A stretch of DNA of 64,000 nucleotides, from contig CAJWLU010000001.1 of NCBI GenBank assembly GCA_913043225.1, forward strand, positions 96,001 to 160,000. The letters run 5' to 3'. The notes beneath the pieces are model-generated. The model saw only the letters and a program-made list of their open reading frames with translations. It had not been told where the DNA came from and made no database searches. Made by a program: the position numbers and the translations under genes. Below, piece by piece: positions 9,161-28,498 of this stretch (position 1 is its first letter; every line of letters starts with the position of its first letter). Origin of the DNA: an uncultured Acidobacteriota bacterium (GTDB lineage Bacteria; Acidobacteriota; Vicinamibacteria; Vicinamibacterales; UBA8438).

Positions 9161-10402
9161 TCACAACACCATCAGCGCCGGCTGTTCGAGATAACGCTTC
9201 ACAGCAGCAAGCAGCTCGGCACCGGTCGCGCCATCGATGGCGCGATGATCCGCCGAGAGCGTGCAACTCATCATCGTCCCGATCCGAACATCGTTGCCTA
9301 CCGCGATCGGCCGCCTCGTCGCCGACCCCACCCCGAGCACACAGCTCTGCGGAGGGTTGACGATGGCGAACAGGCTATCGACACCGTACATCCCCAGGTT
9401 GGAGATAGTGAACGTGCCGCCCGTGTAGTCATCCGGCCGAAGGGAGCCCTCCCGGGCCCGCGCAACCAGCGCCCGGCTATCGCGAGCGATGTCGCCCAGA
9501 TCCTTCGTGTCGGCCGCCCGGATGATCGGCGTGATCAGCCCGTCAGCGGTGTTCACGGCCAGGGCGATGTCGACGGCATCATAGAGGCGGAGTGCGCCAC
9601 CCGCCCAGGCCGAGTTAGCGCGCGGCACGTGTCGGAGCGCGAGCGCCGCAGCTCGGATCACCAGGTCGGTCAACGTTGGCGCCTGGTCACGTCCGAGTGT
9701 CTTCGCCTGGGCGATAACGACCATGGCGGCATCGACGTCGCACTCGGCCCTCAGGTAGAAGTGCGGTACCGTCTGCTTCGCCTGCTCCATCCGCGTCGCC
9801 GTCACGCGACGCATGGCGGTCAGCGGTTCGTCACGGAAGCCCCCGCCCTCGCTCGCGGCAGCCGAGGCCAACGACGTCTCCGCTCCCAGGGCGCCAGGAA
9901 GCAATCGGTCGATGTCGGCCTTCATGATCCGTCCGTCGCGTCCGGTGCCGGCCACCTTCGAGAGATCGATCCCGGCGGCGGACGCCATCCTCCTGGCCAT
10001 CGGTGTAACTGCAACCGCAGCGCCCTCAGTCGACGCCGCGTCAACGGTCTCCTCTTCGGCTTGCGACAGGGTCGTGGACGCGGCCGTCTTCTCGAGCGGC
10101 GCCGTGGGTGCCGTCGACACGGCCGCCAGGGTCGGCCCGCTCGTCTCCGCATGCGGCCGGATGAGCGCCAGCAGTGCCCCGGTCTCGATCCCCTCGGTCC
10201 CCTCGGCGACCTGGATCGCGCTCAGTACCCCCGCGACCGGCGCCTCGAGCTCGACCGTCGTCTTGTCTGTTTCGACTTCGACGATCGGCTCACCAGCCTC
10301 GACACGATCGCCTTCACGCTTGAGCCAGGCGCCCACGATCACCTCAGTGACCGAATCGGCCAGCTGCGGCAGACGCACCTCGGTCGGTAACTCCCCACTC
10401 AT
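9161..10402 (-). CDS. 2-oxoacid dehydrogenase E2 (dihydrolipoamide acyltransferase), single lipoyl domain
   Basis: Lipoyl motif ETDKTT, binding domain TPMARRMA-GTGRDGRI, GGTFTISNLGMYG and catalytic DHRAIDG. Confidence 0.93.
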   Translation of the reverse strand: MSGELPTEVRLPQLADSVTEVIVGAWLKREGDRVEAGEPIVEVETDKTTVELEAPVAGVLSAIQVAEGTEGIETGALLALIRPHAETSGPTLAAVSTAPTAPLEKTAASTTLSQAEEETVDAASTEGAAVAVTPMARRMASAAGIDLSKVAGTGRDGRIMKADIDRLLPGALGAETSLASAAASEGGGFRDEPLTAMRRVTATRMEQAKQTVPHFYLRAECDVDAAMVVIAQAKTLGRDQAPTLTDLVIRAAALALRHVPRANSAWAGGALRLYDAVDIALAVNTADGLITPIIRAADTKDLGDIARDSRALVARAREGSLRPDDYTGGTFTISNLGMYGVDSLFAIVNPPQSCVLGVGSATRRPIAVGNDVRIGTMMSCTLSADHRAIDGATGAELLAAVKRYLEQPALMVL

Positions 10403-12753
10403 CTAACACACAACCTCGCCGCCGCCTCCACGATAGCGTCGGCATCCAACTGATATGCCGCATACAGGTCCGGCACATCACCGGACTGGCCAAAACTAGT
10501 AACCCCAAGCGGGAGCACCCGATGCGATCCCACCGCCCCCAACCAGGACAGGGTCGCGGGATGGCCGTCGAGCACCGTCACCAGCCCCGCGTCGGTCGCC
10601 AGCGGCTCCAGCAGTCGCCGGACCGGCGCCTTGCTTGGCCTCCCTGCGATCACCGCCCGCATCCACTGCTGGTGCAGTCGGCCCGGACAGGTCACCACGA
10701 GCAGCCCGACGCCCGGAATATCCTCGACGATCTGCGCATGAGCATCCAACGCCTGGTCCACAATGGCACCGCTCGCCACGATGGCCAGTTCAGCCCCCTC
10801 AGCCGGAGGCCGCAGCCAATAACCACCATCAACGATCTGGCGGTGGTCTGCAAGCGTCAACTCCCGATCGGGCTGCGCCAGCGGGCGGGTTGAGAGGCGT
10901 AAATAGACGGCTCCCCCCTCGTCCGCCTGCATATGCTCGAAACTCCACCGGAGCACGACCGCAAGCTCGTCCACGTAGGCCGGTTCGAACGCGGTGAGTC
11001 CCGGCTGCCCCATCCCGATGAGCGGCGTCACGACAGATTGGTGCGCACCGCCCTCTGGGGCTAAGCTAACTCCGGACGGCGTTGCAACGACGAGGAACCG
11101 CGCGTCCTGGTAGCAGGCGTAATTCAGCGCATCAAGCCCACGGCTAATGAATGGGTCATAGAGCGTTCCGATGGGGAGCAGCCGGGTCCCGAACAGCGGC
11201 CCCGTCAACCCGAGCGCAGCGAGCAGCAAGAACAGGTTGTTCTCAGCAATCCCCAGCTCAAGATGCTGTCCCTCGGGCCCCATCGTCCAGTCTTGAGCCG
11301 ACAACGGCTGGTCGCCGCGAAAGACATCCGCCTGCGCCGACTTATTGAAGACGCCCCGGCGATTGACCCAGCCTCCGAGATTAGTGGACACCGTAACGTC
11401 GGGCGACGTGGTCACGATGCGATCCGCTAGCTCGGGGTGACGTCGCGCGATGTCGGCCAGCACCCGTCCGAAGCCAGCCTGAGTGGAAAGCCGGTCGCCA
11501 GGAGGCGGTGTCAGCGACTCTGGCACCGGCACCAGCGCCGCCACGTGACGCCGCTCGGCCGACTGACTGAACGGCACGGTGTTGAGGAACGCGCGAAGCC
11601 GCACTGGGGAAACATCCAGTCCCGCGAACGGGTCCCACTCGGCTCCCGCCTCGATGCCCATCTGGTCACGCAGGGTAGCTATCTGGTCAGGTGTGGTCAG
11701 ACCCGAGTGGTTGTCCTTATGGCCCTCGAACGGGAGACCGTGCCCCTTGATGGTGTAGGCGATAAAGCAGACTGGCGTCTCCTCGGTAGCGGCCTCGTGA
11801 AATGCCTCCCGCACCGCCTCCAGATCGTGGCCGGCCAGATTGGTCATCAGCGTGTGCAACCCGACATCGTCATGCTCGTCGAGCAGCTCCGCGATACCCG
11901 AGGTATCCCCGAGGTCGCGGACCAGCCGCTCCCGCCAGGCGGCGCCACCCTGATAGGCCAGCGCGGAATACTCGGAGTTCGGGCAATCATCAATCCACCG
12001 CCGGAGCGACTCGCCACCACGGCGGGCGAACGCCGTCTCGAGTCGCTTGCCATACTTGAGGGTGACCACCCGCCACTCCATCGACGCAAACAGCGTGTCG
12101 AGCCGATGGAAGAAACGGTCGGCCACGATCGCATCAAGGCTCTGGCGGTTATAGTCGACGATCCACCAGGTGTTGGTGATTTGGTGCTTCCAGGACTCGA
12201 GCAGCGCCTCGAAGACGTTGCCCTCGTCGAACTCGGCGTCGCCAGCCACCGCGATCATGCGACCAGGAGGGGCGTCGCCGTCGATGAGCTTCCGGTGCCG
12301 GAGATAGTCTTGCGCTAGCGCGGTGAAGCTGGTCATGGCCACCCCCAGACCAACCGACCCGGTGGAGAGGTCGACGTCGTCGAGGTCCTTCGTCCGCGAG
12401 GGATACGACTGCGCGCCCCCGAAGGCCCGGAAGCGCTCCAGCTGCTCACGGCTCTGGTTGCCAAGCAGGTACTGGATCGCGTGAAACACCGGGCTACCGT
12501 GCGGCTTGACTGCCACCCGATCGAACGGCCGCAGCACGTCGAAATACAGGGCAGTCATCAGCGTCACCATCGACGCACATGACGCCTGGTGCCCCCCAAC
12601 CTTAAGCCCGTCCCGGCTGGGGCGCACATGATTGGCGTGGTGGATCATCCAGGCGCTAAGCCAGAGCACCTTCTGTTCAAGTGCGGCCAGGCACTCCTCA
12701 GAGGTCGTGTTCGCGACCGAGGCCGACACGCCAGAGAGAGAGGGAACTGTCAT
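10399..12753 (-). CDS. Homodimeric AceE-like pyruvate/2-oxoacid dehydrogenase E1 (ThDP-dependent)
   Basis: KVGGHQASCAS, TGSVGLG, ThDP motif GDAEFDEG..N, ELGIAE and EGGAHQS. Overlaps the E2 start. Confidence 0.88.
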   Translation of the reverse strand: MTVPSLSGVSASVANTTSEECLAALEQKVLWLSAWMIHHANHVRPSRDGLKVGGHQASCASMVTLMTALYFDVLRPFDRVAVKPHGSPVFHAIQYLLGNQSREQLERFRAFGGAQSYPSRTKDLDDVDLSTGSVGLGVAMTSFTALAQDYLRHRKLIDGDAPPGRMIAVAGDAEFDEGNVFEALLESWKHQITNTWWIVDYNRQSLDAIVADRFFHRLDTLFASMEWRVVTLKYGKRLETAFARRGGESLRRWIDDCPNSEYSALAYQGGAAWRERLVRDLGDTSGIAELLDEHDDVGLHTLMTNLAGHDLEAVREAFHEAATEETPVCFIAYTIKGHGLPFEGHKDNHSGLTTPDQIATLRDQMGIEAGAEWDPFAGLDVSPVRLRAFLNTVPFSQSAERRHVAALVPVPESLTPPPGDRLSTQAGFGRVLADIARRHPELADRIVTTSPDVTVSTNLGGWVNRRGVFNKSAQADVFRGDQPLSAQDWTMGPEGQHLELGIAENNLFLLLAALGLTGPLFGTRLLPIGTLYDPFISRGLDALNYACYQDARFLVVATPSGVSLAPEGGAHQSVVTPLIGMGQPGLTAFEPAYVDELAVVLRWSFEHMQADEGGAVYLRLSTRPLAQPDRELTLADHRQIVDGGYWLRPPAEGAELAIVASGAIVDQALDAHAQIVEDIPGVGLLVVTCPGRLHQQWMRAVIAGRPSKAPVRRLLEPLATDAGLVTVLDGHPATLSWLGAVGSHRVLPLGVTSFGQSGDVPDLYAAYQLDADAIVEAAARLCVR

Positions 12754-12808: not shown

Positions 12809-13849
12809 TCAGCGGTCCGGCGGTTCGTACTTGAGCAGGGCGCCGCCGTAGGCCACTACGGCGCCATAGACCGTCCCGTCCGGGGCTACGGCCACGCCTT
12901 CGGGGTTCGAGCCGTCGATGAAGGCCGTCAGCGAACCGTCCCGCAAATTGCCGATCCGAATGCCGTACTCCCAACCCGAGTGCTGCCCGTTCCGTGACGA
13001 GGCGGAATCGGCCACGTACACCGTGTCGTCGGCGGCAATGTGTAACCCGCTCGGCCGGCTGTATTGATAGAACTCCTCGATGAACTCGCCCCCGGTGTCG
13101 AACACCTGCAGCCGGTCATTGCCGCGGTCGGCCACAACCACCCGCCCCCGGGAATCGAGGTCGATCGCGTGAGGGGTCCGGAATTGCCCCGGCCCGCTGC
13201 CATGCGACCCCCACTCGCCTATGTAGGCACCGTCGGAGGCGAACTTGACGACCCTGGCGGTAGTGTGCGGACCTGCATCGGCCGCCTGCCCCCCATGTCC
13301 ATCGGCCACGAAGATGGTGCCGTCGGCCGCAGTCACGACGTCACAGGGTTGATCCAGCGTATCGCGGCCAGCCGCTCCCACGCCGGGCGTGCCGAGCGTT
13401 AGGAGCAGGTCGCCGTCTGGACTGAACTTCATCACGACGTGCCCCTTACCTTCGCGGGCAGGGTCTCGTCCGTCAGGACCCAACGAGTCAGTCACCCAGA
13501 CTGCACCGGCCTGATCGACGTGGAGTCCGTGCGGCTGCACCATCATGCCCCGACCGAAACTCGCAACCAAAGTCCCGTCCAGTCTGAACTTCAGGATCGG
13601 ATCAAGATCGGACCGCGCGCAGTCGTTGGCACCGCAGCGCTCGGCTACCCAGAGATGGCGTCCGTCGGGATCCACGTCAACCCCGCCGGTTGATCCCCAC
13701 TCACGACCGGCCGGCAATCCCGCCCAGTCCTCGGCCGTCACATACGGATTGGGAGCGTCGTTCTGGGGAAGGATATCTGGCTGGGCACTAGCCGAGGAGG
13801 CGGCCACGGCCACGAACATGAACGTCTGCACGCGTGACGCGAAGAACAC
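12809..13849 (-). CDS. Secreted NHL-repeat beta-propeller, peptidyl-alpha-hydroxyglycine alpha-amidating lyase (PAL)-like
   Basis: QPHGLHVD, FVADGHG, GSGPGQFRTPHAI and VADRGNDRLQVF. Signal peptide present. Confidence 0.8.
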   Translation of the reverse strand: MFFASRVQTFMFVAVAASSASAQPDILPQNDAPNPYVTAEDWAGLPAGREWGSTGGVDVDPDGRHLWVAERCGANDCARSDLDPILKFRLDGTLVASFGRGMMVQPHGLHVDQAGAVWVTDSLGPDGRDPAREGKGHVVMKFSPDGDLLLTLGTPGVGAAGRDTLDQPCDVVTAADGTIFVADGHGGQAADAGPHTTARVVKFASDGAYIGEWGSHGSGPGQFRTPHAIDLDSRGRVVVADRGNDRLQVFDTGGEFIEEFYQYSRPSGLHIAADDTVYVADSASSRNGQHSGWEYGIRIGNLRDGSLTAFIDGSNPEGVAVAPDGTVYGAVVAYGGALLKYEPPDR

Positions 13850-13855
13850 GGGTTC

Positions 13856-15427
13856 CTACTGGGCAACGATGGCGGCTCGTCCCTGACGCAGGACATACTT
13901 CTGGATCTTCCCGGTGGCCGTCTTCGGGAGCTCGTCGACGAAGTGCACCTTGCGCGGAGTCTTGAAGTTGGCCATGTGCTCTCGCGCGTAGGCAACGAGC
14001 TGGTCGGCTGTCATCATCGCCTCCGGAGCCAACACGATGAACGCATGTGGGGTCTCGCCCCATTTCTCGTCGGGCATGCCCACAACCGCCACCTCCTGGA
14101 TTGATGGATGCCGCATCAGCACTCCCTCGACTTCAACCGACGAGATGTTCTCGCCGCCACTGATGATGACGTCCTTGAAGCGGTCGCGGATCTCCACGTA
14201 GCCATCGGGATGGACCACAGCGGCGTCGCCGCTGTGGAACCAGCCGCCCCGCATGGCGTGAGCCGTTGCATCGGGGTCGTTGTAGTACCCCTCCATCACC
14301 ACATTGCCACGCACCACGATCTCACCGAGCGTCTCGGCATCACGTGGCACCGGGACGCCGTCCTCGTCCACCACCTGCAGTTCGCCCGAGGTGATGAGCT
14401 CAACGCCCTGGCGCGCCTTGACTACGGCGCGCTCATGGAGCGCCAGTTCGACATGCTCTGGGCGGGCCTCACAAACGGTTATGAACGGTGCGGTCTCGGT
14501 CAATCCGTAGACGTGTGTCAAATCCCACCCGAACTCGCCCTCGACCCGCTCGATAGTCGCCGCCGCCGGTGGAGCCCCCGCGGTGAGCACCCGCACGCCG
14601 GACGGCACGTCGCCCCGCTGGTCGGCGGAACAGCTCGCCAGTCCGATCAATACGGTGGGCGCGGCGCACAGCATGCTGACCCGTTCATCGCGCATTAACT
14701 GGAAAGCCTGCACGGGATCCACCTTCCGCAAACAGATGTGGACCCCACCCACGGCGGTCACGATCCAGGTGAACGTCCAGCCGTTGGCGTGGAACATCGG
14801 CAACGTCCATAAGTAGCGATCGACACAACTCATCGGGATGTGGACGAGCGTGCCCACCGCGTTCATGTAGGCGTTGCGGTGCGTGATCATCACGCCCTTC
14901 GGGCGTGAGGTGGTACCGCTGGTGTAGTTGATGGTCAGCAGATCCTGCTCCGAGATGTCCGGGCGGCTGAACTCGCCGGACTCAGTCGTACACAGCGCCT
15001 CGTAGTCGAGCCAACCTCCTCGCTCGCCTTCGAGTGCGACGTAGTGCTCGACCGACGGACAGTTAGCACGTATGCCGTCTACCGTCTCGAGGAAGTCGGC
15101 ATGGGCGCACACCACCCGGGCTCCCGAGTGCTGGACGATGTATTCGATCTCCTGCGGCTTGAGGCGGAAGTTGATCGGCACCAGAACAGCGCCGGCCTGA
15201 GGCACAGCGTAGAACGACTCAAGGTGCGCCGCGGTATTCAGCGAGATGTAGGCGACCCGGTCACCCTTGCCGACTCCCAGGCGCTGTAGCGCCGCCGACC
15301 ATCGGTCGGCGTGCTGGAAAAACGCCTCGTAGGTGAGCCTCCGCCCCTCGTCGACAACGCACTCTCGCTCGGGATACAGCGCCCGGGCCCGACGCTGAAA
15401 CTCGAGCGGGGTGAGCGGGGTCTCCAC
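13856..15427 (-). CDS. Acyl-CoA synthetase / fatty-acid-CoA ligase
   Basis: YTSGTTSRPKG, YGLTET, WFHSGD, DRFKDVIISGGENIS and PKTATGKIQK. Confidence 0.93.
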   Translation of the reverse strand: METPLTPLEFQRRARALYPERECVVDEGRRLTYEAFFQHADRWSAALQRLGVGKGDRVAYISLNTAAHLESFYAVPQAGAVLVPINFRLKPQEIEYIVQHSGARVVCAHADFLETVDGIRANCPSVEHYVALEGERGGWLDYEALCTTESGEFSRPDISEQDLLTINYTSGTTSRPKGVMITHRNAYMNAVGTLVHIPMSCVDRYLWTLPMFHANGWTFTWIVTAVGGVHICLRKVDPVQAFQLMRDERVSMLCAAPTVLIGLASCSADQRGDVPSGVRVLTAGAPPAAATIERVEGEFGWDLTHVYGLTETAPFITVCEARPEHVELALHERAVVKARQGVELITSGELQVVDEDGVPVPRDAETLGEIVVRGNVVMEGYYNDPDATAHAMRGGWFHSGDAAVVHPDGYVEIRDRFKDVIISGGENISSVEVEGVLMRHPSIQEVAVVGMPDEKWGETPHAFIVLAPEAMMTADQLVAYAREHMANFKTPRKVHFVDELPKTATGKIQKYVLRQGRAAIVAQ

Positions 15428-15428
15428 G

Positions 15429-16751
15429 TCAGTCGTCGTCGCTCGTCCGGCGCGCGCGCCGGTCGGCGACGATGGCGTCGTAGTCCTCTTCGGTCAGATA
15501 CGTCATGTTCACATGCGCGTGATACATGTCGTCGTAGCTCCGCTGCCCCCACCCGACCCACTGGGTCGGATCCGGGTTCGCACGATTGGCCGCCGTGTTG
15601 TCATGTACCGCGGTCAAGTGAATGATCGTACCGGCGGGCAGGACGGGCGCAGAATCGTCCGTGTAGACGTAGTTCACGTGCCAGTTGAAGTCGAAGTTTC
15701 CGACGTGGTTCAGCATCTCGACGCGGCCATCTGGATAGATCGCTTCCATTGACATCGACTTGCCCCGTACGTGCATGTGCGGCTGGTAGTTCTCGAGACG
15801 CGCCGGCAGGGTCAGCGGCACATAGGCATGGTGCGTCGTCACCTTCCCGGGCGGGATGTCCAGCGTCGCCATCGACTGCTGCACGCCGAGCGCGCGCCCG
15901 AAGACGCGATACTTCGGCACATAGCCTTTTTCGTGTAGCCAGATTCCCACCTCGGTGTAGCTTGTGAGCTCCTCGCCCACCGAATGGTAGTGGTTGTCGA
16001 ACGCGATGCGGGAATCCGCCTTCAGCAGCTTACCGGTGTTCTCGCGGAACACGTCCCCGATCTTGCCGACTGCGAACTCGGTCAGATAGCTGCCACGTCC
16101 CGGCACGTCCACGGCCGGCGTGTGATCACCGGCCTGCTCCTCCTGCTGGAGATACACCACCGAGTGATGGGTGACCCGTCGTCCGCCACCCATCGACGGT
16201 CGCACCTCCATCCCCGTGATCCAGCGGTCTTCAGTCAACCCAGTCGGTACGACCGGCTGCCACCACTGGTCCTGGCCTTCGGCTGCCTGGGTCCAAGGGT
16301 CGGAGGCCACGACCAAATCCGGCTCCCGGCCATACCGCTCCGCGAGCCGCCACACATCCTCAGCCGGCCAATTCACCGGCGGGGGAGCGTCGGCCGCGTT
16401 TCCCCGGGGCGCGCCGGCGTCGACCCAGCGCGCGACGATGTCGATCTCGGCGTCGCTCAGCGACGTGTCGTTCTCGAATTGCCGGATGCCGACGGTCTTG
16501 TCGAGGTGCCAGGGAGGCATCACCCGCCCGACCACCTTCTCCCGGACTGCGCGCGCCCAGGGCCTGACGTCCTCATAGGTCACCAGCGACATCGGCCCCA
16601 TCTGCCCGGGCCGGTGACAGCCCTGACAGCTGCGCTGCAGTATGGACTCGACATCGCGCGTGAAGGTGACCTCGGTCTGCGCAGACACACTTACCGCTCC
16701 GAAGAGGGCAAGGGCGGCCGTCATGGCCCCGATTCGTCCGTTGGTCATCAT
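15429..16751 (-). CDS. Secreted cytochrome c fused to a copper type II (PHM/DBH-like) monooxygenase
   Basis: Signal peptide and haem motif CQGCH. Copper ligands THHS, NHYH, PHMH and WGQRSYDDM. The ATG at 16751 follows AGGAG; the ORF extension to 16916 overlaps the upstream gene. Confidence 0.75.
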   Translation of the reverse strand: MMTNGRIGAMTAALALFGAVSVSAQTEVTFTRDVESILQRSCQGCHRPGQMGPMSLVTYEDVRPWARAVREKVVGRVMPPWHLDKTVGIRQFENDTSLSDAEIDIVARWVDAGAPRGNAADAPPPVNWPAEDVWRLAERYGREPDLVVASDPWTQAAEGQDQWWQPVVPTGLTEDRWITGMEVRPSMGGGRRVTHHSVVYLQQEEQAGDHTPAVDVPGRGSYLTEFAVGKIGDVFRENTGKLLKADSRIAFDNHYHSVGEELTSYTEVGIWLHEKGYVPKYRVFGRALGVQQSMATLDIPPGKVTTHHAYVPLTLPARLENYQPHMHVRGKSMSMEAIYPDGRVEMLNHVGNFDFNWHVNYVYTDDSAPVLPAGTIIHLTAVHDNTAANRANPDPTQWVGWGQRSYDDMYHAHVNMTYLTEEDYDAIVADRRARRTSDDD

Positions 16752-16791: not shown

Positions 16792-17634
16792 CTACTGTAC
16801 CGTGACCGGCACGAACCCATTCGTCCAGCAGCAGAAAAATCCTCCGGCCATGATGGCGGCCTGGCCACCCGAATCGTCCCAGGCGAGCACGCGCAGCACA
16901 TACTCTCCAGGCGCATCGAACGTCACCATCGTCTCCGCGCGGGCGTCGGCGCCGACCTCTGGAGTGGTCGACGAGAACGCCACCCCGCCGGGCCCACGGT
17001 ACTTGCTCCACACTAGGCCGAACCGGGGCGGGCGGTCCGCCGAGCGCGCCTTGCGCACCCCATCATCGGAGGCCCAGACGCGAATCGGCGTCGGCACCCC
17101 GGTCTCGGCGGTCACGCGGTCAGCGCGCACGCCGAACGGTCCCTGTCCAGCGGCACCGTCGGCACCCTGGAACCGGACGACCGGGGGCGTATTCCCGCTC
17201 GTTACCTCTTCGAGCGCCGTGATCTCCCAGCCGGGCTCCAAGTGCCCGGGAATCACGATTGTCTCACCGTACGACGTCAAGCTCCAGATCAGCCGGGCCT
17301 CACCGAAATCGGCCGGCACCGTCACCCCAAAGACCCCGGTATGGCGGCGCGGCAGGAAGTGCGTCGGCTGCCCCCGATCCGTCGGACCCGGCTCAAACCG
17401 GTTCTCCGGACCGACCGGAATCGTCAACTCTTCTTGGTAGTTCCGATTGAAGTAGCCGAAAACCAGCGTTCGTGTCCCATCGGTATTGCGGTACCACCCT
17501 TCGTACGAGGCGGTGACGCTCTGACCGCGCTCATGCGGTATCGGTGCGCCCAGACGGATGTCCTGTCCCAGACTCGGCTGGACGACCAGGAGCGACAGAC
17601 ACAGTCCGACGCCTCCACAAAATACTCGCTGCAC
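16792..17634 (-). CDS. Secreted hypothetical protein with a C-terminal Ig/PKD-like region
   Basis: Probable GTG start at 17634 gives a signal peptide. Motifs YEGWY, FGYFNRN, WSKYRGPG, PGEYVLRV and FFCCWTN. Confidence 0.7.
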   Translation of the reverse strand: MQRVFCGGVGLCLSLLVVQPSLGQDIRLGAPIPHERGQSVTASYEGWYRNTDGTRTLVFGYFNRNYQEELTIPVGPENRFEPGPTDRGQPTHFLPRRHTGVFGVTVPADFGEARLIWSLTSYGETIVIPGHLEPGWEITALEEVTSGNTPPVVRFQGADGAAGQGPFGVRADRVTAETGVPTPIRVWASDDGVRKARSADRPPRFGLVWSKYRGPGGVAFSSTTPEVGADARAETMVTFDAPGEYVLRVLAWDDSGGQAAIMAGGFFCCWTNGFVPVTVQ

Positions 17635-17763
17635 GATGCCGTGATCATGAAGAACCCACCTGCAGGTGTCAACGGCCCCAACCACACAACCGTACAGAGA
17701 AAGAGGGCCGGAGTGCGTCGAGCACTCCTGCCCTCTGCGTACTAAGTGGTCCAGCAAGGAGAC

Positions 17764-18093
17764 CTAGACCATATCCTTCAGCTTCTTCAGTGGAAGGACC
17801 TTAACTCGCGTCGACGCGGGCTTGGCAGCCACGTCCATGAGTTCGCCTGGACGGAACGGGTTCGGGACATTCTTCCGCGCCTTCTGTGCCGGCTTTCGGA
17901 CGGTCTTGATCTTCATCAGGCCAGGCACGGTGCAGATCCCGACCGCTCCCTTAGCCACATGACGACCGATGACCCCTTCGAGCGCCTCGAATACCGAGGC
18001 CACCTGCTTCTTCGACAGATCGGTAGACTCGGCGATGTTCGCCAGCATCTGGGTCTTCGTCATCGCCGCCTTAAGCTTCGTGCTTCTCGCCAA
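17764..18093 (-). CDS. HU family DNA-binding protein (HU-like)
   Basis: MTKTQM..IAESTDLSKKQV, PGLMKI, NPF arm and KLKDMV. TTG start after GGGAGG. Confidence 0.88.
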   Translation of the reverse strand: MARSTKLKAAMTKTQMLANIAESTDLSKKQVASVFEALEGVIGRHVAKGAVGICTVPGLMKIKTVRKPAQKARKNVPNPFRPGELMDVAAKPASTRVKVLPLKKLKDMV

Positions 18094-21783: not shown

Positions 21784-23169
21784 CTACGGGCTGGCCGCTG
21801 AGTGCGACTCGAGGAAGGCAACCACGGCGTCAAATCCGACCGAGCGCGCCTGATCAATTACCGTCAGGCCGAAGAGGTCGGTCGCATCTACGTCGGCCCC
21901 GAGCTCGACCGCGACGCGCACCGTGTCGAGTCGAAGCGACTCCAGCTCCAACCGGTTCGGCGGCTTCCAGGAGCGGAGGCGGCCGCCGCCCATCCCGATC
22001 GCTGCCATGACGGCGGTGGTGGCCTCCTGGCGCGGCTGCGCGTAGCCCGGGTCCTTGTAGTCGGCGTGATGGATCACCCGAGGGTCGGCGCCATGGTCTG
22101 CGAGCAGAAGCATGACATCGGGCGCATTGAACCGGGCGGCCAGCCAGAACGGTGTGGCTCCCACCAGCGGCGGAGCAAAGTGGAGATCACGCGACGAGCG
22201 GCGGGTCGGCGTCCACGTGTTCAGCGTGGCATTCGGATCGGCGCCGTGCTCGAGCAAAGTCCGAACCATCAGTGGATCACGGCGCATGACCGCGGCGTGC
22301 AGGGCAGCAAACCCAGCCTCGGACGCTCCAGCATCAGCGCCAGCCTCCAGCAACAGCGTCACCAGCTCACCGAATCCGGCATGGGCAGCCAGCGTCGTCG
22401 CGCTCACACCCCAGGCATTGGTGTCGTCCGCGTTGGCGCCCGCCGCTAGTAGCAGACGTGCCGAGGCGACATCGCCCCCCCGTGCCGCGAACATCAGCGC
22501 GGTGTTGCCGCCGTGCGGGATCTCGCGGTTGTACTCCGGCTGGCCGTGCGGCGGCACCGCCATCACCTGGCTCCAGACCTCGGACCGCGCATGGAGGTCA
22601 ACGCCGCTGTCGATCAGGACCTGGACGACAGAAGGATGCTGCTGGGCCACCGCCCACATCAGGGCTGTCTGCCCGCGGGTCCCCCGTGCCTCGGGGTTGG
22701 CTCCGGCTCGAAGGAGGAGCTCGACCACCTTGGCCGCACCGCTTCTGGCCGCTACCATGACCGGCGTTTCGCCTGCTAGGAGCGCCAGGTTGGGATCGGC
22801 GCCCGCTTCCAGCAGACGACTCACGGCGTCCGTGCTACCGTTCTCCGACGCCGTCCACAGCGCCGACACGCCGAGATCATTGACGGCATTCGCATCGGCG
22901 CCGCCAGCCAGCAACCGGTCGAGGGTCTCGATCTCGTCGTGATAGCTGACCCAGTGCAGAGCGGTCGCCCCATCAGGTTCGGCCGCGTTGACGTCGGCGC
23001 CAGCGGCGAGGAACGCCCACACCTGCGCCATATCGCCCCCTCGGGCCGCGGCGACCAGCGGTAGCTCTTCGGCGACCAGGCTGACTAACGGCGACATCGC
23101 GCACACGACCCCAATGACAATTCGCGTCGGCCACCGTCGAGTAATCTGCCAGCTCTGACGTACAGACAT
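21784..23169 (-). CDS. Ankyrin-repeat protein, probably exported
   Basis: Multiple GxTALxxA..LLxxGAD repeats and a hydrophobic N-terminus. Third gene of a DUF1592-DUF1552 operon. Confidence 0.88.
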   Translation of the reverse strand: MSVRQSWQITRRWPTRIVIGVVCAMSPLVSLVAEELPLVAAARGGDMAQVWAFLAAGADVNAAEPDGATALHWVSYHDEIETLDRLLAGGADANAVNDLGVSALWTASENGSTDAVSRLLEAGADPNLALLAGETPVMVAARSGAAKVVELLLRAGANPEARGTRGQTALMWAVAQQHPSVVQVLIDSGVDLHARSEVWSQVMAVPPHGQPEYNREIPHGGNTALMFAARGGDVASARLLLAAGANADDTNAWGVSATTLAAHAGFGELVTLLLEAGADAGASEAGFAALHAAVMRRDPLMVRTLLEHGADPNATLNTWTPTRRSSRDLHFAPPLVGATPFWLAARFNAPDVMLLLADHGADPRVIHHADYKDPGYAQPRQEATTAVMAAIGMGGGRLRSWKPPNRLELESLRLDTVRVAVELGADVDATDLFGLTVIDQARSVGFDAVVAFLESHSAASP

Positions 23170-23174
23170 GTCGG

Positions 23175-24515
23175 CTACAGCAGGCCGTCAAGGGTCGAGA
23201 TCGGCAACCGCCCAGTGCTGCCGCCGATCCGCTCCACGGGCACCCGCATCTTGTCCATGAGCGTGACCAGCAGGTTCGCCATCGACGGCTGATCGGTATA
23301 GCGAAGATGGCGCCCGCTCGGCAGCGTGCCGGCTCCGCCGCCGGCCAGCAACAGCGGGAGATCTACTCCCGAGTGCCGGGTGCTGTTCGAAAGGCCTGAA
23401 CCATAGAGGATGGTGATGTGGTCGAGCAGCGACCCGTCACCGTCGGGCGTCGCACGGAGCTTGGTGAGATAGTTCGAAAACAAAGTCGTGTGGTAGCGGT
23501 TGATCTTCGACATGTGCTCGACGAGCTCGGGCACGTCGTTGTGATGCGAGAGCGGATGGTGCGCCTCGGGCACGCCGATCTGCGGATAGGGCCGAGCACT
23601 CTGCTCCTTGCCGACCATGAACGAGATAACTCGGGTCAGATCCGCCCGCATGCCCAGGATCTGCAGGTCAAGCATCAGCTCCAGGTGATCCTCGAACTCG
23701 GGCGGCGCCCCCTGAGGCTGGTCGACGGCCGGGAGCTCCAATCCGGACTGCTCCTCAGCCTTCTGAATCCGACGCTCCACGTCGCGGATGGCCTCAGTGT
23801 ATTCCTCGACCTTCAGCACGTCGCCTGGGCCGAGCTCGCGGCGCAGGGTGGCCAGTTTGTCGGTCACCGAATCGAGCAGGCTCCGCTGCTGGCGTAGCCG
23901 AGCTTCGCGCGCCTCGCGGTCGGTGCTCCCGCTATCGCCGAACAGTGTCTCGAACACGGCGCGTGGATTCCACTCGGTGGGAAGGGGCTGGGTCGGGCTG
24001 CGCCACGACAACGTATGGGTGTAGACGCAGCTCAGATTGCCGGTACAGGCGCCGGCGTTGTTCGGTGGATCGAGCGACAGCTCCAGAGATGGCACCTGGG
24101 TTTCGCCAGCAAAGTGACGCGCTAGAAGCTGGTCCATCGAGACATCGGCCAGGATCTCGATCTCGTTCCGTCCGCCGCGGGTGGTACCGGTGAGGAACGA
24201 CCCGGACGCGCCCGCGTGGATGTAGTTCCAGCTGGCGTTGAGCCCAGACAGCACGACCATCTGGTCCTTGAAGTCGGCCAGTGGCTCGAGGATGGGCGAC
24301 AGCGCGTAGGCGGTCCCCTCCTGCTCGGGTGTCCAGTAATCCATCGCCATGCCGTTGGGGACGTAGAACGCCTGGAAGCGATGCGCGGTCGCCGGCGCAG
24401 CCAGGCCCCGAAGGCCAAAGGCCGGGTGCATGGCGTCGAGTGCCGGCAGGGCGAGACTGGCTCCCAGGCCGCGAAGTACCGTGCGGCGCGGCAACGACTT
24501 GGTCAGGAACGTCAT
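23175..24515 (-). CDS. DUF1552 (HXXSHH) protein, Tat-exported
   Basis: PRRTVLRGLG Tat motif, YVPNGM, NPRAVFETLFG and AHHPLSHH. Confidence 0.9.
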   Translation of the reverse strand: MTFLTKSLPRRTVLRGLGASLALPALDAMHPAFGLRGLAAPATAHRFQAFYVPNGMAMDYWTPEQEGTAYALSPILEPLADFKDQMVVLSGLNASWNYIHAGASGSFLTGTTRGGRNEIEILADVSMDQLLARHFAGETQVPSLELSLDPPNNAGACTGNLSCVYTHTLSWRSPTQPLPTEWNPRAVFETLFGDSGSTDREAREARLRQQRSLLDSVTDKLATLRRELGPGDVLKVEEYTEAIRDVERRIQKAEEQSGLELPAVDQPQGAPPEFEDHLELMLDLQILGMRADLTRVISFMVGKEQSARPYPQIGVPEAHHPLSHHNDVPELVEHMSKINRYHTTLFSNYLTKLRATPDGDGSLLDHITILYGSGLSNSTRHSGVDLPLLLAGGGAGTLPSGRHLRYTDQPSMANLLVTLMDKMRVPVERIGGSTGRLPISTLDGLL

Positions 24516-24543
24516 CTAGATCTTCTCCTGTGTCCGTGGGTCG

Positions 24544-27057
24544 TCAGTTCGTTGGAGATCCGGCCACCGACCGGCTCCTGAACGTCGGGCTCTTGACGAT
24601 ACCGAGAATCAGCGACGACCAGCGGTAGTCATCGGCGGCTGCGGCCCGGACAATTTCCCGGACGGCGGGTCGGTCGTAGTACTCGAGGCGTCGGCCCAAT
24701 GCGTAGGCCAGCAGCTTCTCAGTTACGGTCCGGGGAAACGCCTCAGGATCGGCGAGCAGCAAGGCGCGAAGGCCTGCCAAGCCAGCCACGCTCCCACCGG
24801 CCGCCGTCGTCCCACGCGCATCGACTGGCTGGCCCGCCTCGTCCACCGTGCGCCAGCCGCCAATCGCGTCGAAGTTCTCGAGCGCGAAGCCCAAGGGGTC
24901 GATGACGGCGTGACAGCTGGCACAGGTCGGACTCCGCCGGTGCTGGGCCAGTCGTTCTCTAATCGTCGCCGCGACGAGTCCGGGCTGCTCCTCAAGCGTG
25001 GTATCGACGCCAGGCGGTGGCGGCGGAACGGGCAGCCCGAAGATGTTATCGAGCAGCCACTTCCCTCGCAGGACCGGGGAGGTCCGATCGGGATAGGAGG
25101 TGGTAGCCAGCAGTGCCCCATGCGCCAGCAGCCCACCGCGCCGCGAGCGATCCGGTAGGGAGATGCGGCGGAACCGGGCTCCGTACACACCTGGCAGGCC
25201 GTAGTGCCTGGCCAGCCGCTCGTTCACAAACGTGTAGTTGGCATCGAGCAGCCGCCGGACGCTCTGGTCTTCGACAAGCGTGCTCGCCACAAACCGTTGC
25301 GTCTCTTCCTTGAACGCGGCGAGCAAGGTTTCGTCGTAGTGCGGATACTGACCCGGGTCCACCACGACCTCGCCGACCCGCCGCAGATTCAGCCACTGCG
25401 CGGTGAAGTCGTCTACCAGTGCCGATATCGCCCGTGGCTCTGCGAGTAGACGGCGCGTTTGGGCCTCGATTACGGCAAGATCTGACAATCGGCCCGCCTC
25501 GGCCGCCGCCAGCAGCTCATCGTCCGGGACACTGCTCCACAAGAAGAACGACAGCCGGGACGCCAGTTCGAGGTCGCTCACCTGGAACGTCGAGGTATCG
25601 GCCGACAAACCGTCTGGGTCACGCTCGACGCGCAGCAGGAAGTCTGGGTCGACCAGCATCCGCTCGAGCGCGAACTGGATCCCATGCTCGAACCCGCCGC
25701 CCTCGCGCCGCCCCTCATCGAAGAAGGTCATGAGTACGGAGAGGTCATCCGGCTGCACCGGACGGCGATAGGCACGCCTCGCCAACCGGCTGAGGATCTC
25801 GCGCGCGCAGCCGGCCTCGGCCTCGAAGGCCTCCGGGCGGCAGGAGAAAATGGTCCGCCGGCTCGGGGTGTCAACGTCGACTGACTTCGTCTCGTAGGGC
25901 CCACCGATCTCCACCGCCCCCACAGCGGCATTGCCCATGTAGATCTGGTCGTTCGTCAACACCCGTCCACGTTGCAGCGGTTGCGGAAGCCCCTCTGGCT
26001 CCCACAGCTGGCGCACGAACGACACACCCACCGTCCGTGGGCCCGCCGCCACCGGCACCCTTACCTCAAGACCAGCGTCGCCGGTCAGCTGCATGTAGGT
26101 TTCCCAGTCGGGGTCGCCCGCAAACCCGGGCTCGCCGTCACCCGCATAGCTAGCTGCGGCCGGCGTCCCCGGTGCGGCACCGCCCAGCTCGAACCGCTCG
26201 AGGAGACGGTCGTCCAGTCGCACCTCCAGCTGCTGCGGCCACCCCATGCCCATCAGATAGGCCTGATACTGCCGGCGCAGCTGCACCTTGATGACGTAGT
26301 CGCCATCGACCGGAAAGTTGTAGTCGATGGCCATGCCGCCACGCGACCCGAGTGGAAGAGCTTCGCTCTGGCGCTCGTCCTGCACCACGTGGAGCGGAAT
26401 CTCGAAGGTGTCCACCTCCGCCACAGACGGCACCAGCCCGACGGCCAGGCGGGTGACCTGACGCGCGACCGAGAAATAGCGGTCGAGGTGCGCCCGCGAG
26501 ATCGTGAGCACGTCGGCAAAATTGTCGAAGCTGCCGTCTGCGGTCTCGTCGCCTAGCAGTAACTCGGCAGCGTCGACCTCGAGGTGAAAGAGGTCGCGTA
26601 CCGCATTAGCGTACTCGGTCCGGTTGAGCCGGTGGACCGGGCTCTCACGCCCCGGGTCGGGTGAGGCCAGCCATGCGGTGTCGAGTGACGTCTCCAACCG
26701 ATCGGCGACCAGATCGTAGGTCGCAGCGTCAGGACGAGGGCGGGCCGGGGGTGGCATAGAACCAGCGCGGATTTTGGCCACGACACGCTCCCACAACGCC
26801 GGGTCACCAGCCGGGTTGCTAGAATCGACAGCCGTGGCATCGAGCGACAGTCCCGCAGTGCGGAGCCGGTCGTTGTGGCAAGAGACGCAATAGCGATCGA
26901 GCACGGTACGTAGTTCCGCACCGTGCGCGGCGGAGCTGTCCCTGGAGACCTCCTGCCCTCCGGCCAACCCGACCGCGGCCGGCGCCACAAGGAGCGAGAC
27001 CAGCGCCACCGCGGTCACACGCCGTCCAGGCGACATCCCCCCACCGGGTCGATCCAT
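24544..27057 (-). CDS. DUF1592/DUF1588/DUF1587/DUF1595/DUF1585 dihaem cytochrome c protein
   Basis: CVSCH and CASCH. Also HRLNRTEYANAVRDL, ELASRLSFFLWSSVPDDEL, TSPVLRGKW and YALGR. Confidence 0.9.
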   Translation of the reverse strand: MDRPGGGMSPGRRVTAVALVSLLVAPAAVGLAGGQEVSRDSSAAHGAELRTVLDRYCVSCHNDRLRTAGLSLDATAVDSSNPAGDPALWERVVAKIRAGSMPPPARPRPDAATYDLVADRLETSLDTAWLASPDPGRESPVHRLNRTEYANAVRDLFHLEVDAAELLLGDETADGSFDNFADVLTISRAHLDRYFSVARQVTRLAVGLVPSVAEVDTFEIPLHVVQDERQSEALPLGSRGGMAIDYNFPVDGDYVIKVQLRRQYQAYLMGMGWPQQLEVRLDDRLLERFELGGAAPGTPAAASYAGDGEPGFAGDPDWETYMQLTGDAGLEVRVPVAAGPRTVGVSFVRQLWEPEGLPQPLQRGRVLTNDQIYMGNAAVGAVEIGGPYETKSVDVDTPSRRTIFSCRPEAFEAEAGCAREILSRLARRAYRRPVQPDDLSVLMTFFDEGRREGGGFEHGIQFALERMLVDPDFLLRVERDPDGLSADTSTFQVSDLELASRLSFFLWSSVPDDELLAAAEAGRLSDLAVIEAQTRRLLAEPRAISALVDDFTAQWLNLRRVGEVVVDPGQYPHYDETLLAAFKEETQRFVASTLVEDQSVRRLLDANYTFVNERLARHYGLPGVYGARFRRISLPDRSRRGGLLAHGALLATTSYPDRTSPVLRGKWLLDNIFGLPVPPPPPGVDTTLEEQPGLVAATIRERLAQHRRSPTCASCHAVIDPLGFALENFDAIGGWRTVDEAGQPVDARGTTAAGGSVAGLAGLRALLLADPEAFPRTVTEKLLAYALGRRLEYYDRPAVREIVRAAAADDYRWSSLILGIVKSPTFRSRSVAGSPTN

Positions 27058-27388: not shown

Positions 27389-28498
27389 CTACCGGGTCGG
27401 GTTGACGACGCCTCCCGTTTCCTCGCCTCGGGCTTCGGCTTCGAGCAGACGAGCACCCTTCATGATCCCCTCGAGGGCGTAGTTGGCCTCGTGGCAGGCG
27501 TACTCGTAGACCTTGGTGTCGCTTGCCGGCCAGATGTACTCGCCGGTCCAGGGCGCGGTCCAGACCGTCGGATCGTTGACCGTGAAGTTGTAGAGCAGTG
27601 TGTCATTGTCGAGCCGGGTGAAGCGCTCGACCACGTGGAGGTTTCGCGAGGCGCCAGAGAGCGCCGGGCTGTCACTGAAGTTCGTGGTATCCACGACGAG
27701 GGTATCGCCTTCCCAGCGTCCGACCGAATCACCCAGCCAGCTGCTGATCTCAGGCGGAGCGTGCTCGTCGTTCATCCGCACGATGCGCGCTTCGTGCACC
27801 ATCTCGACCTGGATCAGAATGGTGTCTTCGGTCTGCACGATCCGCTTTAGGTTGTTGTAGAGCACGGGCAACATCGGCGGCCCCGCCGTCGACCCGAAGC
27901 CGAGCAGGCACCGCTCGGCGGCCGGACGGGTCTCCATGTCGTCGTAGGGACCAGGCGCGTTGAGACTGTCTTCAAGCCACCAGGCGGTCCCGGTGTTCGG
28001 ACGGAAGAAGGCGGCGAGACCAGCGAGGGCCGCCTGCGCTTCGGCGGTCCTGGGCGGCTGCCGGCCGTTGGGCGGGTCGATGATGATCGACGTGCGCCAC
28101 TCGCCGTCGATCTGGAAACCAGTGCTGCCCCGATCCATCCAGAACGTGTTGTAGCCCCCGACGTTGCCTGCGGCGCCGGTCGAGCCGTCTCCGCCTACTG
28201 GCGGCGCCTCACGAGGAGCCGACGCATCTTCGGCGTTGCGCTCGTCGGGGATATTGAACGCGCGCTGGTAGGAATCGGCACCGGCGGAAAGCTCCGCCGC
28301 TTCCTCCTCAGTCAGCGACATCCGGTCACCGAGCTCGGTGGGGCGTTGCAGCGGGGTCAGAGTGGCCACGTCATAGGTCCCCGACAGGTCGGGACGACCG
28401 GACGGCGTCCTCGGGATACTGCTCGACTGGGCCAGGGCCGTCATCGGTGCCGCGATCACGAGCACCAAGAATACGAATCGGGCTACCACGCGCTGCAT
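27389..28498 (-). CDS. Secreted conserved hypothetical protein ('YACHExN' family), copy 1
   Basis: Signal peptide, PRTPSGRPDLSG, ERCLLG..GPPM..YNN, GRWEGDTLVV and YEYACHEANY. Paralogue of 47205-48194. Confidence 0.85.
   Translation of the reverse strand: MQRVVARFVFLVLVIAAPMTALAQSSSIPRTPSGRPDLSGTYDVATLTPLQRPTELGDRMSLTEEEAAELSAGADSYQRAFNIPDERNAEDASAPREAPPVGGDGSTGAAGNVGGYNTFWMDRGSTGFQIDGEWRTSIIIDPPNGRQPPRTAEAQAALAGLAAFFRPNTGTAWWLEDSLNAPGPYDDMETRPAAERCLLGFGSTAGPPMLPVLYNNLKRIVQTEDTILIQVEMVHEARIVRMNDEHAPPEISSWLGDSVGRWEGDTLVVDTTNFSDSPALSGASRNLHVVERFTRLDNDTLLYNFTVNDPTVWTAPWTGEYIWPASDTKVYEYACHEANYALEGIMKGARLLEAEARGEETGGVVNPTR

Follow-up and report, generated by a model that had tools for sequence, protein, structure and literature searches.

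What does a bacterium do with a protein that carries, on one chain, a haem c motif and the copper ligands of peptidylglycine alpha-hydroxylating monooxygenase (PHM) and dopamine beta-hydroxylase (DBH), and where would such a protein find its electrons? The gene that raises this question belongs to an uncultured marine member of the Acidobacteriota (Vicinamibacterales), and lies in a stretch of 64,000 nt of contig CAJWLU010000001.1, here called the window, in whose positions the coordinates are given (Table 1). As judged from sequence and a predicted model, the architecture is real and well supported, and the chemistry is a prediction. We consider it probable that the gene encodes an exported, haem-fused monooxygenase of the PHM/DBH type, assisted by a partner protein, in which the haem relays electrons in place of ascorbate.

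Table 1. Features of the haem-copper gene run and their positions in the window.
Feature	Position	Strand	Remarks and basis
Haem c / PHM-DBH-type two-copper protein (P0001)	15429..16751	-	440 aa; sequence, conservation, profile, model
Predicted Sec signal peptide, residues 1-24	16680..16751	-	Sequence and hydropathy, read by eye
Class I-type cytochrome c domain, residues 26-116	16404..16676	-	Pfam, model helices, 4rlr, conservation
CQGCH haem motif	16628-16614	-	Conserved C42, C45, H46
Met78 (MPPW), likely sixth haem ligand	16520-16518	-	Conservation
PHM/DBH-type catalytic core, residues 131-420, two beta-sandwich subdomains	15492..16361	-	1sdw, Foldseek
Predicted CuH ligands H195, H196 (16169-16164) and H254 (15992-15990), = PHM H107, H108, H172	15990..16169	-	Alignment, conservation
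Predicted CuM ligands H325, H327 (15779-15771) and M409 (15527-15525), = PHM H242, H244, M314	15525..15785	-	
Q323, at the PHM Arg240 position	15785-15783	-	Profile alignment
Dedicated partner, ~280 aa, predicted exported, two beta domains	16792..17634	-	Start GTG 17634; linkage, fusions, model
Partner vicinal CCW motif	16833-16828	-	Conservation
Sigma-70-like site TTGACA-17-CATGAT	17644..17672	-	Ends 10 nt before partner start; motif search
Acyl-CoA synthetase	13856..15427	-	Starts 1 nt after monooxygenase stop; Pfam/NCBIfam
Predicted exported PAL-like NHL propeller	12809..13849	-	1.6 kb downstream; not conserved at this place

The gene and its motifs

The monooxygenase frame is open over 440 codons from 16751 to 15429, with AGGAG just 5' of the ATG. 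The original prediction, made from the letters of the window, listed a signal peptide followed by five motifs, and all five occur in the order given there: CQGCH at residues 42-46, THHS at 194-197, NHYH at 253-256, PHMH at 324-327 and SYDDM at 405-409. A signal peptide is likewise predicted on a reading by eye, with Arg6 and a hydrophobic stretch (11-residue Kyte-Doolittle mean up to 2.25) ahead of the V-S-A that precedes Q25. The motif set exceeds chance. Of the 14,929 ORFs that the genome yields in six frames, 18 match the spacing pattern CxxCH..HH..H..HxH..M, itself derived from the monooxygenase family, and each of the 18 is a paralogue; none of 20,000 shuffles of the protein matches it. 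Contigs from all four of the marine RNA runs examined (of at least eight) cover pieces of the gene; the shares are small and come with no silent control, and we take them as a weak hint that the gene is expressed.

A PHM/DBH-type core behind a class I cytochrome c

On its profile and predicted model the protein belongs to the PHM/DBH structural superfamily, and is neither PHM proper nor DBH. Searching solved structures with the single sequence gave no match at E 1, no NCBIfam family was found for the protein, and neither Pfam Cu2_monooxygen nor Cu2_monoox_C matches it at E 0.01, probably because it has diverged from models built on eukaryotic members; PF03712 reaches no cut-off anywhere in the genome and passes it in one of 33 long relatives. 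We built a profile from 126 sequences: the query, one in three of 109 close homologues, and those 88 of 150 distant representatives that reach 80% coverage and do not exceed 620 aa. It matches DBH at E 5.1e-11 and PHM at E 1.2e-7. In the HMMER profile alignment the HH pair, the single His and HxH fall on the ligands of the animal enzymes, with PHM residue numbers counted by hand from the printed alignments. This alignment ends before the Met, so the equivalence of M409 to PHM M314 rests on conservation (122 of 125 homologues), on spacing (82 residues from H327 to M409 vs 70 in PHM) and on the span of the structural alignment. All 126 aligned homologues have H195, H325 and H327, and at least 90% of them keep C42, C45, H46, M78, H196, H254 and M409; the full set of four haem residues and six copper-ligand residues is found in 119 of 125 homologues (83 of the 88 distant ones, 36 of the 37 close ones).

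The AlphaFold model (pLDDT 92.5, pTM 0.88) is all-beta over residues 146-418, and its predicted core divides into two beta-sandwich subdomains. Foldseek places DBH and PHM structures at ranks 1-31 (best DBH, E 4.5e-12), and PHM 1sdw superposes on the model with Z 18.8 and rmsd 3.4 over 243 residues, the next unrelated fold following at Z 8.3. Target-normalised TM values from Foldseek are 0.62 for closed 6ALA, 0.58 for 1PHM and 0.52 for 8DSJ (query-normalised 0.43, 0.42 and 0.39), values that do not separate the open from the closed conformer. A two-domain PHM/DBH-type fold, with HH...H and HxH...M as its copper ligands, had been proposed together with Foldseek as the means of checking it, and on the profile, the conservation and the predicted model that assignment is upheld.

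In the domain ahead of the core lies the only Pfam match of the whole protein, Cytochrome_CBB3 at 24.5 bits, below the cut-off of 27. The model's helices span residues 30-111, and a structure search aligns residues 26-116 to the monohaem cytochrome 4rlr with Z 7.7 and rmsd 2.0 over 75 residues. The features of a class I cytochrome c are present, namely CxxCH, a distal Met, a predicted export signal and a Ccm system in the genome; among the 88 distant homologues the haem-motif Cys, Cys and His are kept in 86 and M78, which the original prediction lacked, in 87. The genome carries ccmA, B, C, E and F directly after one paralogue pair and encodes haem-copper oxidase subunit I. Sec export and Ccm attachment of the haem are plausible on this gene content, as is the periplasmic location proposed earlier. 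The enzyme-partner pair at L108:5027-14749 (G000:C5:178026-187750) adjoins, convergently, a ccm operon (ccmE, F-H, A, B, C).

A dedicated partner

The protein was at first viewed as acting singly, and while the protein itself stands, that view missed the dedicated partner encoded upstream of it. The partner lies directly upstream of the enzyme in 78 of 80 loci, the two misses being at a locus edge, and all 13 partner copies of the genome sit beside a paralogue, upstream or downstream and in one case divergently. Loci anchored on the partner have the enzyme beside it in all 12 cases from genomes and, where a metagenome locus offers 700 nt to either side, in 40 of 41 (66 of 80 overall). Among 121 genomes, the 11 that are partner-positive all fall within the 28 that are enzyme-positive, although as kin they are not independent. 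Six of the 19 paralogues have no adjacent partner and 17 of the 28 enzyme-positive genomes no partner match, so parts of the family do without it. The identity matrices of 13 enzyme-partner pairs correlate (r 0.675, reached in 0 of 20,000 permutations): the two have been duplicated, and have diverged, together. Clean fusions of the two, in both orders, are found in 4 of 150 representatives (one more is probably a frameshift) and in 9 of 30 long partner homologues. In the P0133 fusion the haem-PHM unit is inserted within the partner, between its first domain and the rest.

What kind of protein is the partner? It has no match in Pfam, NCBIfam or the sequences of solved structures. Its model (pLDDT 81.5) has an Ig/PKD-like C-terminal domain, and a fold search, which barely covered the N-terminal domain, returned Ig-like matches alone for residues 146-281 (the best at Z 10.1, the others at 8.3 or below). 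C269, C270 and W271 are invariant in 88 close homologues. The presence of this CCW motif goes with the enzyme residue two positions beyond the copper Met. All 5 enzymes of this genome that pair with a CCW partner have His or Gln there, as do all 10 in such fusions, and enzymes whose partner lacks CCW mostly have Phe, Leu or Ile (7 of 8 in this genome, 3 of 3 fusions); the pairing may reflect ancestry alone. Predictions of the complex were scattered between runs (0.79, 0.06, 0.10), and we used them neither for nor against binding. The enzyme likely works with its adjacent partner, and linkage and fusion together would suggest that the two bind physically.

Genomic neighbourhood

The sigma-70-like site ahead of the partner is a possible promoter of the gene run; two such sites were found against 1.0 +/- 1.0 expected, which is not significant by count. 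On the other side, the acyl-CoA synthetase gene is adjacent in 32 of 80 loci, all from Acidobacteria/Vicinamibacteria and thus close relatives only, and 2-oxoacid dehydrogenase E1 and E2 genes are present in 31 and 27 of the 80, in one lineage. None of the three occurs in the Gammaproteobacteria and Gemmatimonadota loci, and we treated them as synteny of one lineage and not as components of the system. The nearest neighbours, a cytoplasmic-type acyl-CoA synthetase and E1/E2, fit no testable periplasmic pathway. At 9161-12753 a single-chain transketolase-like E1 and then E2 lie downstream of the synthetase, an arrangement of this lineage; at locus L071 E1 directly follows the monooxygenase, with no synthetase between.

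Clustering of the other neighbours returned lineage blocks alone, and no substrate-specific neighbourhood common to the paralogues was seen. Upstream of the partner, 17764-18093 encodes an HU-like DNA-binding protein, which has contigs in three of the four RNA runs examined. A planctomycete-type cassette at 21784-27057 encodes a DUF1592/DUF1588 cytochrome protein, a DUF1552 (HXXSHH) protein and an ankyrin protein, and similar cassettes flank several paralogues (L113, L116, L120). Periplasmic families are extremely expanded in this genome: NHL propellers number 18, and one secreted family without a Pfam match (for example 27389-28498) reaches about 83 ORFs.

A large family

Scoring 8,000 candidates yielded 4,613 homologues, and there are 14,624 clusters at 50% identity, some of which surely match the haem part alone; this is a very large family in which we found no characterised member. 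The 3.85-Mb genome has 19 full-length paralogues, 18 of them with all ten haem and copper residues. The paralogue at L121:5104-6366 (G000:C4:50962-52368) keeps the haem motif and has lost most copper ligands, possibly as a non-catalytic or repurposed form. A haem-free core query has matches in 28 of 121 Acidobacteriota genomes (one of the 28 flagged unpublished), and all of 20 hand-picked lower-ranked matches, from 12 genomes, carry a CxxCH...Met haem domain in frame, so the haem is a fixed component of the family as far as this query reaches. Loci of the closest relatives come from Vicinamibacterales/Acidobacteria, and others from Pseudohongiella-type Gammaproteobacteria and Longimicrobiales. 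Of 43 long relatives 33 were scanned, and 15 of these have an AhpC/TSA domain with a single conserved Cys ahead of the haem, which suggests that other subfamilies attach a thiol module. P0129 and P0138 have two tandem haem-PHM units per chain, with redoxin or EF-hand domains.

The homologues bear names such as 'cytochrome c' or 'hypothetical' in their sources, and some database entries read 'redoxin domain protein'. Atlas clusters lie at cosine 0.98-0.99, and in two of them 12-13% of members carry PF03712 (Cu2_monoox_C), so the domain resemblance is already partly public. We found no published study of a haem-PHM family; subscription papers on PAM evolution and supplements, which lay outside our scope, may mention bacterial homologues. 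A bacterial PHM does not appear in the available parts of PMC12912966, PMC5461114, PMC6107167 and PMC10303134.

Electron supply

Where would the electrons come from? According to the original prediction the protein's own c-haem supplies them. The haem domain is present, but one haem holds one electron and a monooxygenase turnover needs two; the haem must therefore be re-reduced from outside and is likely a relay, not the source. Building on what is known of the fold's relatives, we propose that the protein would be exported by Sec, acquire its haem through Ccm, and hold a His/Met-ligated haem and two coppers; O2 would be activated at CuM and a C-H bond hydroxylated, while the haem would be re-reduced one electron at a time from a periplasmic pool, a direction of flow that we assume. 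The candidates for such a pool would be the dozens of PQQ dehydrogenases of this genome and the thioredoxin-fold domain fused in other relatives. One PQQ dehydrogenase query finds about 57 matches in the genome, and three queries find 80 ORFs; as a linked donor these enzymes were rejected, for they are not enriched near the paralogues, of which 5 of 19 have one within 5 kb where 3.7 would be expected (P 0.29). The L110:5934-7238 paralogue is followed by cytochrome b561-type and molybdopterin oxidoreductase genes (MsrPQ-like), a possible electron source.

Sequence does not reveal which way the electrons flow, and the haem might instead drain electrons from a copper oxidase or dehydrogenase, or feed a reaction other than hydroxylation in an enzyme that handles nitrite or NO. 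In quinohaemoprotein dehydrogenases the cytochrome c domain lets electrons out, in haem-tethered copper nitrite reductases it lets them in, PHM structures with copper-bound nitrite and azide are among the Foldseek matches, and the paralogue group of this protein has extra conserved histidines (H256, H358, H411 and H413). We nonetheless judge such an activity unlikely, since the exact His3 and His2Met sets are kept in nearly all homologues and both solved enzymes that have them are monooxygenases; 19 diverged paralogues with variable pockets would, moreover, better suit substrate diversification than a single inorganic substrate.

Substrate and downstream step

If the protein is a haem-fed monooxygenase, what might it hydroxylate? 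PHM contacts its substrate through Arg240, in a salt bridge to the carboxylate, and through Tyr318 and Asn316, as described in the accessible part of PMC12164859. In the profile alignment the Arg240 equivalent is Gln323, as in DBH, and only 5 of the 126 homologues, among the paralogues 2 of the 19, have Arg at this position; Asn316 and Tyr318 correspond to His411 and His413, placed by register from M409 alone. With Arg240 replaced by Gln, peptidylglycine amidation is unlikely, and the assay substrates suggested at the outset (Gly-extended peptides, hippurate and N-acylglycines) are poor candidates for this paralogue. The paralogues at L106:4985-6370 and L110:5934-7238 carry Arg at the Arg240 position and are the best candidates for a carboxylate substrate. 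Substrate-contact columns differ widely among subfamilies and the metal ligands do not, so we would expect one chemistry on many substrates.

Could the locus nonetheless encode a bacterial PAM, in which the C-terminal glycine of peptides or N-acylglycines is hydroxylated and the propeller at 12809-13849 then releases the amide? Fold and ligands are the same as those of PHM, an acyl-CoA ligase gene lies downstream of the monooxygenase, and the N-terminal half of the propeller family has PAL (3fvz, E 8.9e-29) as its best solved match, in a collinear alignment, although TRIM-type repeats rank above PAL in full-length searches. PAL binds Zn through H585, H690 and H786 and has Tyr654 as its catalytic residue. 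The propeller, one of about 11 close paralogues, keeps H585 and H690; unlike PAL it has an invariant His at Tyr654 and, in a reading by eye of a position that no alignment covers, apparently Glu at His786, and its family has an invariant Arg in ADRxN. Enzyme, partner and propeller follow one another in four metagenome loci, once with partner and propeller fused in frame, but these loci were retrieved with the fusion as query and give no frequency. Against a PAM stand the loss of Arg240, the His/His pair assigned by register to Asn316 and Tyr318, the His in place of Tyr654, and the failure to find a propeller orthologue in 80 loci of close relatives, on which ground we rejected a conserved PHM-PAL operon at this locus; we think that a bacterial PAM has little chance of being the right reading. 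That the protein is a non-catalytic copper-binding, electron-transfer or sensing protein merely keeping the fold would accord with the missing common neighbourhood of the paralogues and with a genome rich in expanded periplasmic families of unknown function, but is very improbable, as homologues at 30-45% identity retain the haem along with both copper sites, ligands are lost in only 1 of 19 paralogues, and the partner is fused to several enzyme folds.

Those fusions bear on what may follow the proposed hydroxylation. The 30 long partner homologues (4 of them partial or frameshifted) include fusions to cupins (8), NHL propellers (7), an alpha/beta hydrolase (1) and an amidohydrolase (1). Partner-fused propellers from other genomes share 46-49% identity with the propeller in the window, whose subfamily occurs in 15 of 121 genomes and in all but one of the 11 partner-positive ones; NHL propellers lie near 3 of 19 paralogues vs 0.9 expected, a marginal enrichment (P 0.06). 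No cupin fusion was present among the 150 matches listed from 251 genomes of the class. One fused cupin weakly resembles the mandelonitrile lyase family (E 1.5e-6, far under the cut-off). Hydroxynitrile lyases cleave alpha-hydroxylated intermediates. PAL likewise does so, according to the accessible part of PMC12164859, and we therefore favour catabolism by hydroxylation and then cleavage as the reading of the fusions to propellers, cupins and hydrolases, which lend it weak support. We suggest, tentatively, that the substrate may be a small dissolved organic molecule without a C-terminal carboxylate, which, once hydroxylated beside a heteroatom, would be split by a PAL-like propeller, cupin or hydrolase, that the 19 paralogues may share out such substrates, and that the partner may cap the cleft or dock the second enzyme.

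Comparison with known systems

How does the haem-relay monooxygenase that we propose compare with the systems it resembles? The closest listed monohaem class I cytochrome c, Geobacter PccH (PDB 4RLR), shares CxxCH, the distal Met and the helical domain, and differs in that the haem domain here is fused to a copper core; at Z under 8 the resemblance is only middling. The solved members of this copper family that we found are animal enzymes. With PHM, the catalytic core of PAM (1PHM, 1OPM, 1SDW), the protein shares the two-subdomain fold, a secretory location, the aligned H107/H108/H172 and H242/H244, M314 by register, and an aromatic residue, W163, at Tyr79. It differs in its 12-16% identity, its N-terminal cytochrome c domain, Gln for Arg240, its separate partner and its bacterial host; PHM has disulfides, and this protein, with no cysteines beyond the haem motif, has none of them. 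DBH (DBH/DBM, 4ZEL) is the best match by both profile and Foldseek, and the two have in common a Gln two residues before HxH and an accessory N-terminal domain. The N-terminal DOMON of DBH, tyramine beta-hydroxylase and MOXD1 is, however, replaced here by a helical cytochrome c, there is no dimerisation domain, and identity is 14-15%.

These differences matter for a debate on the animal enzymes. As far as the accessible parts of the sources go, ascorbate-free reduced PHM gives under 15% product (PMC9064607), the closed two-copper state of PHM is debated, and the way in which ascorbate and electrons drive the enzymes is unsettled (PMC9064607, PMC12164859). A disulfide-free bacterial version would likely express in E. 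coli, and through its built-in haem each electron could be followed optically, which would make the question of electron drive in PHM and DBH directly testable. The C-H oxygenases would gain a large new class, of which some marine acidobacteria carry about 20 copies per genome, and the new class would bear on the origin of PHM and DBH.

It is possible, though doubtful, that these proteins form a widespread, unrecognised group of bacterial, ascorbate-free PHM/DBH-type oxygenases in which a haem relay feeds a two-copper core and a cleft-capping partner recruits a PAL-like, cupin or hydrolase cleaver, multiplied to about 20 copies in marine Vicinamibacterales for the oxidative cleavage of dissolved organic matter; they would then be a prokaryotic counterpart to the PHM-plus-PAL logic of amidation in animals. 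The animal enzymes make noradrenaline and amidated hormones, and the bacterial form would be fed through its own haem, likely not by vitamin C.
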